The notes under the pieces: generated by a model
Databases searched by the model: none
What the model was told of the DNA's origin: nothing
What the model saw: only the letters and a program-made list of their open reading frames with translations
IMG/VR virus record: IMGVR_UViG_3300027833_000011
Origin: a virus
Taxonomy: Duplodnaviria; Caudoviricetes
DNA length: 64,000 nucleotides
Strand: one strand, 5' to 3'
In this document: positions 8,115-8,531 of the stretch, one piece after another
Layout of the letters: each line of letters starts with the position of its first letter
Numbering within the stretch: the first letter of the stretch is position 1
Made by a program: the position numbers and the translations under genes

Positions 8115-8531
8115 TGGTGGAGGTGCCGGGTTTCGAACCCGGGTCTTGTTCAGTCCACCTATAAAGGACTACACGTTTAGAACAGTATTTTCTAATACTT
8201 CGAAATTTGTTGGTTATTATTCATCATTGCAACCAACACCCAATGAACGATTCAATTTTGGGTTTAATCGTACTCTACCACACTGCGGACTTCTGTTGCT
8301 AGGTTATGTGTCCTGACCGACCCCATGTAACCGACTCTTAGAGTGGGTTACTGTTAACACGTAGTCTAACTATGCGTTAACGATAGCTTCGTCAGCTACT
8401 AAGCCGAACATTGCCATCTCGTTGTAAACGTTGCCGTCTAAAAAAATTGTCACCGTAGATTAAAGTGATAGGAAACATCTCACTACGTGCCCCGTATAAC
8501 TGACCCTGCCAATCAATTCCAAGTCACCCCC
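8115..8531 (-). ncRNA. ssrA: tmRNA (417 nt); tag ORF 8435-8370 = (A)GNVYNEMAMFGLVADEAIVNA*
   Basis: 5' GGGGGTG pairs with 3' CACCTCC including G3-U70; 5' GGAATTGA loop; T-arm CCGGG-TTCGAAA-CCCGG; encoded ACCA end; TAGAC-GGC resume context. Confidence 0.92.

Follow-up and report, generated by a model that had tools for sequence, protein, structure and literature searches.

A large marine phage carries an expressed one-piece tmRNA whose long, conserved tag is probably a phage-specific recognition signal

The window analyzed here, a stretch of 64,000 nucleotides from IMG/VR virus record IMGVR_UViG_3300027833_000011, carries a gene that reads as a tmRNA with a 21-residue tag ending in -IVNA, raising the question of what such a tag is for and what would read it. 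Phage tmRNAs are known, and the usual view is that they duplicate the host system. Excerpts of three reports place tmRNA in ~2.3% of phage genomes, with two-piece forms in Melnitz and pelagimyophages (PMC9004378), in the mycobacteriophage Bxz1 group and Bacillus phage G (PMC4131195) and, together with SmpB, in huge phages (PMC7162821). Like these, the present gene is a phage-borne ssrA of the kind thought, in the same excerpts, to support translation during infection; neither a conserved phage-specific tag nor a link to ClpC is described in those excerpts. A full-text literature search likewise found no paper on the conserved tag family described below or on its link to a phage ClpC, which is not proof of absence.

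The gene matches the Rfam model RF00023 from end to end (model positions 1-374; score 80.1 bits, gathering threshold 47; E 1.8e-29), giving a complete one-piece tmRNA of 417 nt on the minus strand, from 8531 to 8115, with CCA encoded at its end; the nearest record, G001, carries the same gene (82.5 bits). The 5' end, GGGGGUGA, and the 3' end, CACCUCC-A-CCA, form a 7-bp acceptor stem that includes a G3:U pair. Relatives were collected from IMG/VR phage contigs with two probes, one of 20 nt taken from the 5' end and one, degenerate, for the tRNA-like 3' end; 51 distinct tmRNAs were extracted, and the 31 with a tag of the same kind make, with that of the window, the set of 32 sequences used below. 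The parts of the gene and its borders are as follows.

8525-8531, minus strand: 5' strand of the acceptor stem, GGGGGUG, pairing with 8125-8119 (CACCUCC), the G3:U wobble being the alanine-charging mark
8448-8484, minus strand: pseudoknot 1 (tmRNA nt 48-84), its 3' end 12 nt upstream of the resume codon
8373-8435, minus strand: tag frame of 21 sense codons, GNVYNEMAMFGLVADEAIVNA, with resume codon GGC at 8435-8433 in the Rfam alignment
8370-8372, minus strand: tag stop codon UAG, with UAA, UAG or UGA at the same place in relatives
8353-8381, minus strand: helix 5 hairpin, GUUAACGC.AUAG...CUAC.GUGUUAAC, enclosing the stop and the three sense codons before it (GUU AAC GCA)
8115-8142, minus strand: T-arm (tmRNA nt 390-406), 3' acceptor strand CACCUCC, discriminator A and CCA
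8083-8108, minus strand: intrinsic terminator immediately beyond the CCA, with a stem of 10 pairs and a T run behind it
9864-9894, minus strand: candidate Bacteroidota-type promoter, TTTG-N-TAnnTTTG, heading a string of genes from 9840 to 8537 that ends in the tmRNA

Comparison of the 32 sequences supports this structure to a different extent in its different parts. All seven acceptor-stem pairs, G3:U included, are identical in 32 of 32, but this invariance is no independent evidence, because the relatives were collected with patterns that fix these bases. In the T-arm, on the other hand, the pairs are present in all 32 with up to five pair types per position, so that the changes are compensatory. 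Both stems of pseudoknot 1 covary: at the stem 1 pair 51-65, 14 sequences have G-C and 15 have C-G, and each stem 2 pair occurs as two to four standard pair types. A global RNAalifold fold of the 32 tmRNAs recovered only the acceptor stem and the T-arm, together with parts of helix 2 and pseudoknot 1. The posterior probability of the RF00023 match is high at pseudoknot 1 and low across pseudoknots 2-4, a region in which the 32 tmRNAs align poorly with one another. The promoter is a weak call, because its pattern has five matches in the whole window against 2.4 expected (five were reached by 9 of 100 shuffles), and a sigma-70 promoter scan of the window stayed at chance level. The same-strand gene string that ends in the tmRNA includes a glutathione-peroxidase-like ORF (8897-9469, minus strand). 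Outside the window's own lineage, the genes flanking the tmRNA show no synteny, and thus no conserved neighbor indicates a partner.

The sequence-only reading had described a 21-residue tag ending in -IVNA that follows a TAGAC resume context, and its coordinates, peptide and context are all borne out by the Rfam alignment, in which the consensus resume codon falls on GGC 8435-8433, after UUUUUUUAGAC. The alternative, that the resume codon is misplaced and the true tag is short and canonical, draws on the behavior of ARAGORN, which called nine tRNAs and no tmRNA in the window and miscalled short tags in some relatives (e.g. VDSKVAVA). However, no alternative frame of the tmRNA yields a tag ending in AA, short or otherwise, and the Rfam alignment, the spacing from the covarying pseudoknot 1, the onset of peptide conservation and a three-base periodicity all point to GGC 8435. 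In each of the 32 related tmRNAs an open tag frame starts at a Gly codon between nt 91 and 97, tag lengths run from 20 to 23 residues with all differences in whole codons, and amino-acid conservation starts at the resume Gly, the preceding in-frame residues varying among relatives. For several relatives ARAGORN arrived independently at the resume codon used here (GNVYNNMEVAGILATSNVAVA is one case). Given this agreement, which goes well past what chance would produce, we consider a wrong frame scarcely credible. Recoding of TAG was also considered and rejected, since the long ORFs are open under code 11 and relatives have TAA or TGA as the tag stop in the position of this TAG.

The RNA itself is observed in seawater. 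In six metatranscriptome runs, ~16-18% of the words sampled from a 2.7-kb stretch were present, a share that corresponds roughly to the length of the tmRNA, and four of the six, from four studies, were mapped as contigs on 7200-9900. The contigs cover 8117-8511 at word depths of 182, 291-453, 552 and 402 versus 3-13 on both flanks, contig word depth being a coarse measure of RNA level and the uncovered parts of the flanks not being evidence of silence. One RNA contig is identical to the window over 361 nt. The tmRNA therefore accumulates as an abundant stable RNA, far above its neighbors. Low-depth contigs bridge the upstream ORF into the tmRNA, which would fit a precursor processed at the 5' end. 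Illumina adapter abuts 8117, 8118 and 8124, next to the CCA end, and contigs from three studies stop at 8511, 20 nt inside the predicted 5' end, where adapter abuts in one run; the stop at 8511 may be real, or may come from assembly or from a halt in reverse transcription, and neither 8511 nor 8117-8124 is to be taken as an end of the RNA. Together with the fold and the frame, these data leave us highly confident that the phage encodes a working one-piece tmRNA that is expressed and carries a tag frame from GGC 8435 to TAG. It would presumably be charged with alanine and be active in tagging.

How far this tmRNA resembles those of potential hosts was assessed with an unselected sample of tmRNAs across Bacteroidota, from which 69 tags were recovered. 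The overall architecture is the same as that of the Bacteroidota one-piece tmRNA (tags such as GENNYALAA and GNTQYAMAA), with a tRNA-like domain bearing G3:U, a pseudoknot 1 and a helix 5 that holds the stop. As in Flavobacteriia, the resume codon is GGC (Gly) in a U-rich ...UAAAC/UAGAC context, UUUAAAC-GGC being common to both, and the G-N-x-Y/F start of the phage tag recalls the G-E/N-x-x-Y start of Bacteroidota tags. The tag itself is otherwise different, as the sequence-only reading had held: whereas the phage tag has 21 residues and ends in IVNA, 66 of the 69 Bacteroidota tags have 8-10 residues (one has 15, and one is a dubious 6-residue ARAGORN call), 65 end in L/M-A-A, none ends in V-A or N-A, and none resembles the phage tag. 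At least 120 genome contigs contain DNA coding for GENNYALAA, and nearly all of these contigs belong to Bacteroidota. The 5' end also differs (GGGGGUGA...GGAAUUGAUU in the phage versus GGGGUCGA...UUUUGACAGC in Bacteroidota), and most relatives of the phage gene come without smpB, unlike the Bacteroidota one-piece tmRNA.

The Gly start had been taken as a sign of Bacteroidota origin. It does fit, and the resume context shared with Flavobacteriia is in line with it, but it is not diagnostic, because only ~30 of the 69 sampled tags start with Gly. Bacillus tags likewise start with Gly. The start and the UUUAAAC context are thus consistent with a Bacteroidota origin without identifying one, and BLAST of the tmRNA against five Flavobacteriia genomes returned nothing significant, so there is no sign of recent capture. 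Further evidence on the host is indirect: the capsid protein shares 43% identity with its counterpart in Flavobacterium phage immuto, a ClpC homolog is 59-60% identical to full-length ClpC of Flavobacteriia, the GC content is 32%, and the TAnnTTTG promoter motif is weakly enriched; a Bacteroidota host is likely for this large marine phage.

The consensus of the phage tag family reads G, N/E/D/K, V/T, Y/F, x, x, M/L, x, x, x, G, L, V/L/I, x, x, acidic, then V-x-V/I-A, and the window tag follows it with G1, N2, V3, Y4, M7, G11, L12, V13, E16 and A21; only its penultimate Asn is private to its lineage. The Gly at position 1 is present in 32 of 32 tags, G11 in 31 (through GGT, GGA and GGC), L12 in 30 (through CTT, CTC, TTA and TTG), M or L at position 7 in 31, and the terminal Ala in 31 (through GCC, GCG, GCT and GCA). 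Entropies at codon positions 1-3 are 1.08, 0.755 and 1.41, position 3 exceeding position 2 (Wilcoxon p = 1e-4). Over 27 close pairs of tags pN/pS is 0.27, and five of these pairs (window-L001, L009-L016, L009-L017, L016-L017 and L049-L135) differ only synonymously; pooled over all tag pairs the ratio is as high as 0.72 because synonymous sites are saturated. The one population variant inside the window tag, 8397 T>C, is synonymous (GUA to GUG). Part of the conservation lies at the RNA level, the resume codon being GGC in 31 of 32 and the last codons lying within the helix 5 stem. Taken together, these patterns make it quite probable that the tag is selected as a peptide signal, and conservation of the peptide with its C-terminal Ala suggests that something reads it and speaks against an idle tag. 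A T4 gp21-type I/L-x-E cleavage site was considered and rejected, as none occurs in the window tag and none is kept in the family consensus.

The family has been seen in IMG/VR contigs only, and a blastn search of 50,697 deposited phage genomes with the window tmRNA gave no match. ARAGORN missed 20 of the 51 tmRNAs and truncated several tags, and phage tmRNA surveys based on it therefore undercount this tag family.

The end of the window tag requires separate consideration. The C-terminal dipeptides of the 32 tags are V-A in 20, I-A in three, G-A in three, A-A in three, N-A in two and T-I in one, the N-A end occurring only in the window and its near-identical relative. Sister lineages most similar in the 5' portion, through pseudoknot 1 and the resume context, have tags ending in VAVA, and compared with these the window lineage has ~45 extra nt after the tag stop. 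The 66-nt stretch with helix 5 has a predicted fold energy of -17.7 kcal/mol (z -2.58). By these comparisons -IVNA reads as a lineage-specific variant of the usual -VAVA of the family that coincides with a rebuilt helix 5. Because the private Asn lies inside the rebuilt stem, it may be a by-product of RNA-level rebuilding with retention of the terminal Ala, and perhaps not a selected loss of a degron. The canonical end of the ClpXP ssrA degron, apolar-Ala-Ala, is absent from the window tag. In the ssrA tag, ClpX recognizes the three C-terminal residues together with the free carboxylate, and the -IVNA end would probably weaken a ClpX-type reading of the final residues while keeping the terminal Ala.

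The sequence-only reading had proposed altered or no degradation of tagged proteins, the latter meaning that the tag escapes all proteases, so that ribosomes are freed and truncated phage proteins kept. In keeping with the latter, the window tag lacks the L/M-A-A end of nearly all sampled Bacteroidota tags, its penultimate Asn is confined to the window lineage, and tag-mediated proteolysis is dispensable for rescue in bacteria (PMC8403727). A tag without a reader should drift, however, yet this one is under purifying selection over 32 tmRNAs, with G11, L12, M/L7 and the terminal Ala kept through synonymous codons (four of them for Ala). Truncated proteins are, moreover, rarely useful, and the phage lineage has genes for ClpC, ClpP and peptidases. 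Rescue without destruction is thus disfavored, and we regard it as improbable; altered recognition of the tag is the best candidate reading.

The genes that could supply such recognition lie some distance from the tmRNA, clpC being 20 kb away in the window.

28808-30835, minus strand: ClpC-type double AAA+ unfoldase, candidate reader of the tag (Pfam AAA, AAA_lid_9, UVR, AAA_2 and ClpB_D2-small)
27701-28750, minus strand: M20/M42-like metallopeptidase (weak Pfam matches), directly downstream of clpC
31119-32978: DnaK, adjoining clpC

The phage ClpC aligns to residues 155-797 of Staphylococcus aureus ClpC and thus comes without the N-terminal Clp_N domain, while retaining two AAA+ modules, a UVR-type middle motif and an LGF loop. 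For the degradation of ssrA-tagged proteins, ClpA does not need its N-domain. Of 29 records with the tag family, 26 have a ClpC homolog, versus 3 of 20 records with other phage tmRNAs, and ClpP occurs in six of the eight tag-family records of at least 150 kb, clpP not being found in the 64-kb window. The association of ClpC with the tag comes from one phage lineage, and shared ancestry alone may explain it. In 18 of 20 related records holding both genes, the peptidase lies within 3 kb of clpC; a conserved pair of this kind would fit degradation followed by recycling of amino acids. Several further peptidase-like genes lie between the tRNA clusters and clpC (21452-22294 and 23832-24611, minus strand; 24859-27666, plus strand): matrixin-like (M10), papain-like (C1), and one for a 935-residue protein with a C-terminal phage lysozyme domain. 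Among relatives, phage smpB was found only in G002, G003 and G025, and most of these phages must therefore use host SmpB. The most complete relative, G002 (318 kb), has the most divergent tag of the family, GDIFADATVGHFVTEGAEVVA, without the G-L core, and encodes a full-length ClpC of 840 residues with Clp_N in addition to SmpB and ClpP (L023:1465-3984, minus strand; L020; L013).

DnaK next to clpC also bears on a role outside proteolysis, in which the tag would be a chaperone handle or a signal for sorting or sequestration, or in which the RNA would mainly soak up host SmpB and so disturb trans-translation of the host. The great abundance of the RNA and the absence of SmpB from most relatives agree with this, as does an apparent gene for a tmRNA-like RNA made of the tRNA-like domain (TLD) only in another huge phage; TLD-only tmRNA-like molecules inhibit tmRNA, according to an excerpt of PMC4131195. 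A sponge for SmpB would, however, need no conserved open tag frame with a conserved C-terminal Ala, and we hold a non-proteolytic role to be very improbable. The TLD-only candidate is a separate match of 112 nt (58 bits) at 414804-414915 of the published 484-kb huge phage LR756508.1 (L353), which looks like a mini-tmRNA restricted to the tRNA-like domain and resembles one reported for mycobacteriophage DS6A.

Recognition by the proteases of the host is the main alternative: the tag would be an ordinary, longer degron whose hydrophobic, Ala-ending C-terminus is read by host ClpXP, a ClpAP-like protease, Lon, FtsH or Tsp, and the phage would gain only extra rescue capacity, for example when infection or defense nucleases break many mRNAs. 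Engineered ssrA variants ending in LVA are degraded fast in E. coli, which together with the near-universal terminal Ala and the V-A or A-A end of most family members counts for this reading, as do the need of most relatives for host machinery, smpB being absent, and the full-length ClpC of Flavobacteriia, which is so close to that of the phage. Extra rescue capacity alone, on the other hand, leaves without explanation a conserved phage-specific peptide 12 residues longer than the 8-10 residues of host tags, and the Asn before the terminal Ala is unlike the apolar residues recognized by ClpX. On balance we consider an ordinary degron unlikely. The reading that we favor, with moderate confidence, is that the phage tmRNA is functional and that selection maintains its tag as a phage-specific signal for recognition.

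Under this favored reading, the host alanyl-tRNA synthetase would charge the phage tmRNA, SmpB, assumed to be that of the host, would bring it to stalled ribosomes, and the stalled protein would gain Ala plus the 21 encoded residues. The tag would most likely be a recognition signal for a specific partner and not a neutral spacer, because the peptide appears to be under purifying selection that includes its near-invariant C-terminal Ala. As to the partner, the N-domain-less phage ClpC acting with ClpP is our candidate, put forward tentatively and with less than even confidence. It would destroy stalled products and recycle them by a route under control of the phage and not of host ClpXP, a possibility that arises because ClpC travels with the tag family and adjoins the aminopeptidase-like gene. 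The full arrangement, a private tag-and-destroy circuit of Bacteroidota-infecting jumbo phages in which a phage tmRNA adds a 22-residue degron poorly read by host ClpXP and an N-domain-less ClpC-ClpP with an adjacent aminopeptidase processes the products, is rather doubtful as a whole. Were it true, it would be the phage, and not the host, that determines what becomes of stalled products and recycles them during infection, and -IVNA would be a further step away from recognition by the host.

There is a bacterial precedent for co-evolution of tag and protease. The tmRNA tag of Mycoplasma has 27 residues and is read by Lon, a long tag matched to a different protease (PMC8403727). The phage tag is similarly long, rich in hydrophobic residues and removed from the ClpX-type end; however, the Mycoplasma case concerns bacteria that have lost ClpXP and was tested experimentally, whereas the likely hosts of this phage keep their Clp proteases and the reader is a candidate N-domain-less ClpC-ClpP. 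What sets the present system apart is a conserved phage-specific tag, about twice the length of host tags, in a lineage with an N-domain-less ClpC, ClpP and a linked peptidase. If a phage unfoldase does read it, this would be the second natural tmRNA tag co-evolved with a different protease, after that of Mycoplasma and Lon, and the first in a virus; it would also provide a compact natural orthogonal pair of degron and protease and show large phages taking over protein quality control of the host.

Other phages also carry long tags. LR756508.1 has a tmRNA at 92434-92880 (L349:1501-1947) with a tag that is long but different, 36 residues ending in KPAAV. Further phage tmRNAs recovered with the same probes (L006, L010, L014, L007, L011, L080, L087 and others) have different tags of 19 to ~40 residues, many of which still end in ALAA, AVAA or AEAA, and some of which start with ANNIVRF, which we take to be a cyanobacterial-type start; a ClpC homolog is missing from most of these records. 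Long tags thus seem common in phage tmRNAs generally. In the tags of L028, L104, L124 and L136, the first nine residues (GNTFAKLAA...) resemble a whole host-type tag, GNTQYAMAA, and the M/L at position 7 of the phage family resembles the L/M that precedes A-A in host tags; as a speculation, the long tag might have arisen from an ancestral short one by loss of the stop and extension.
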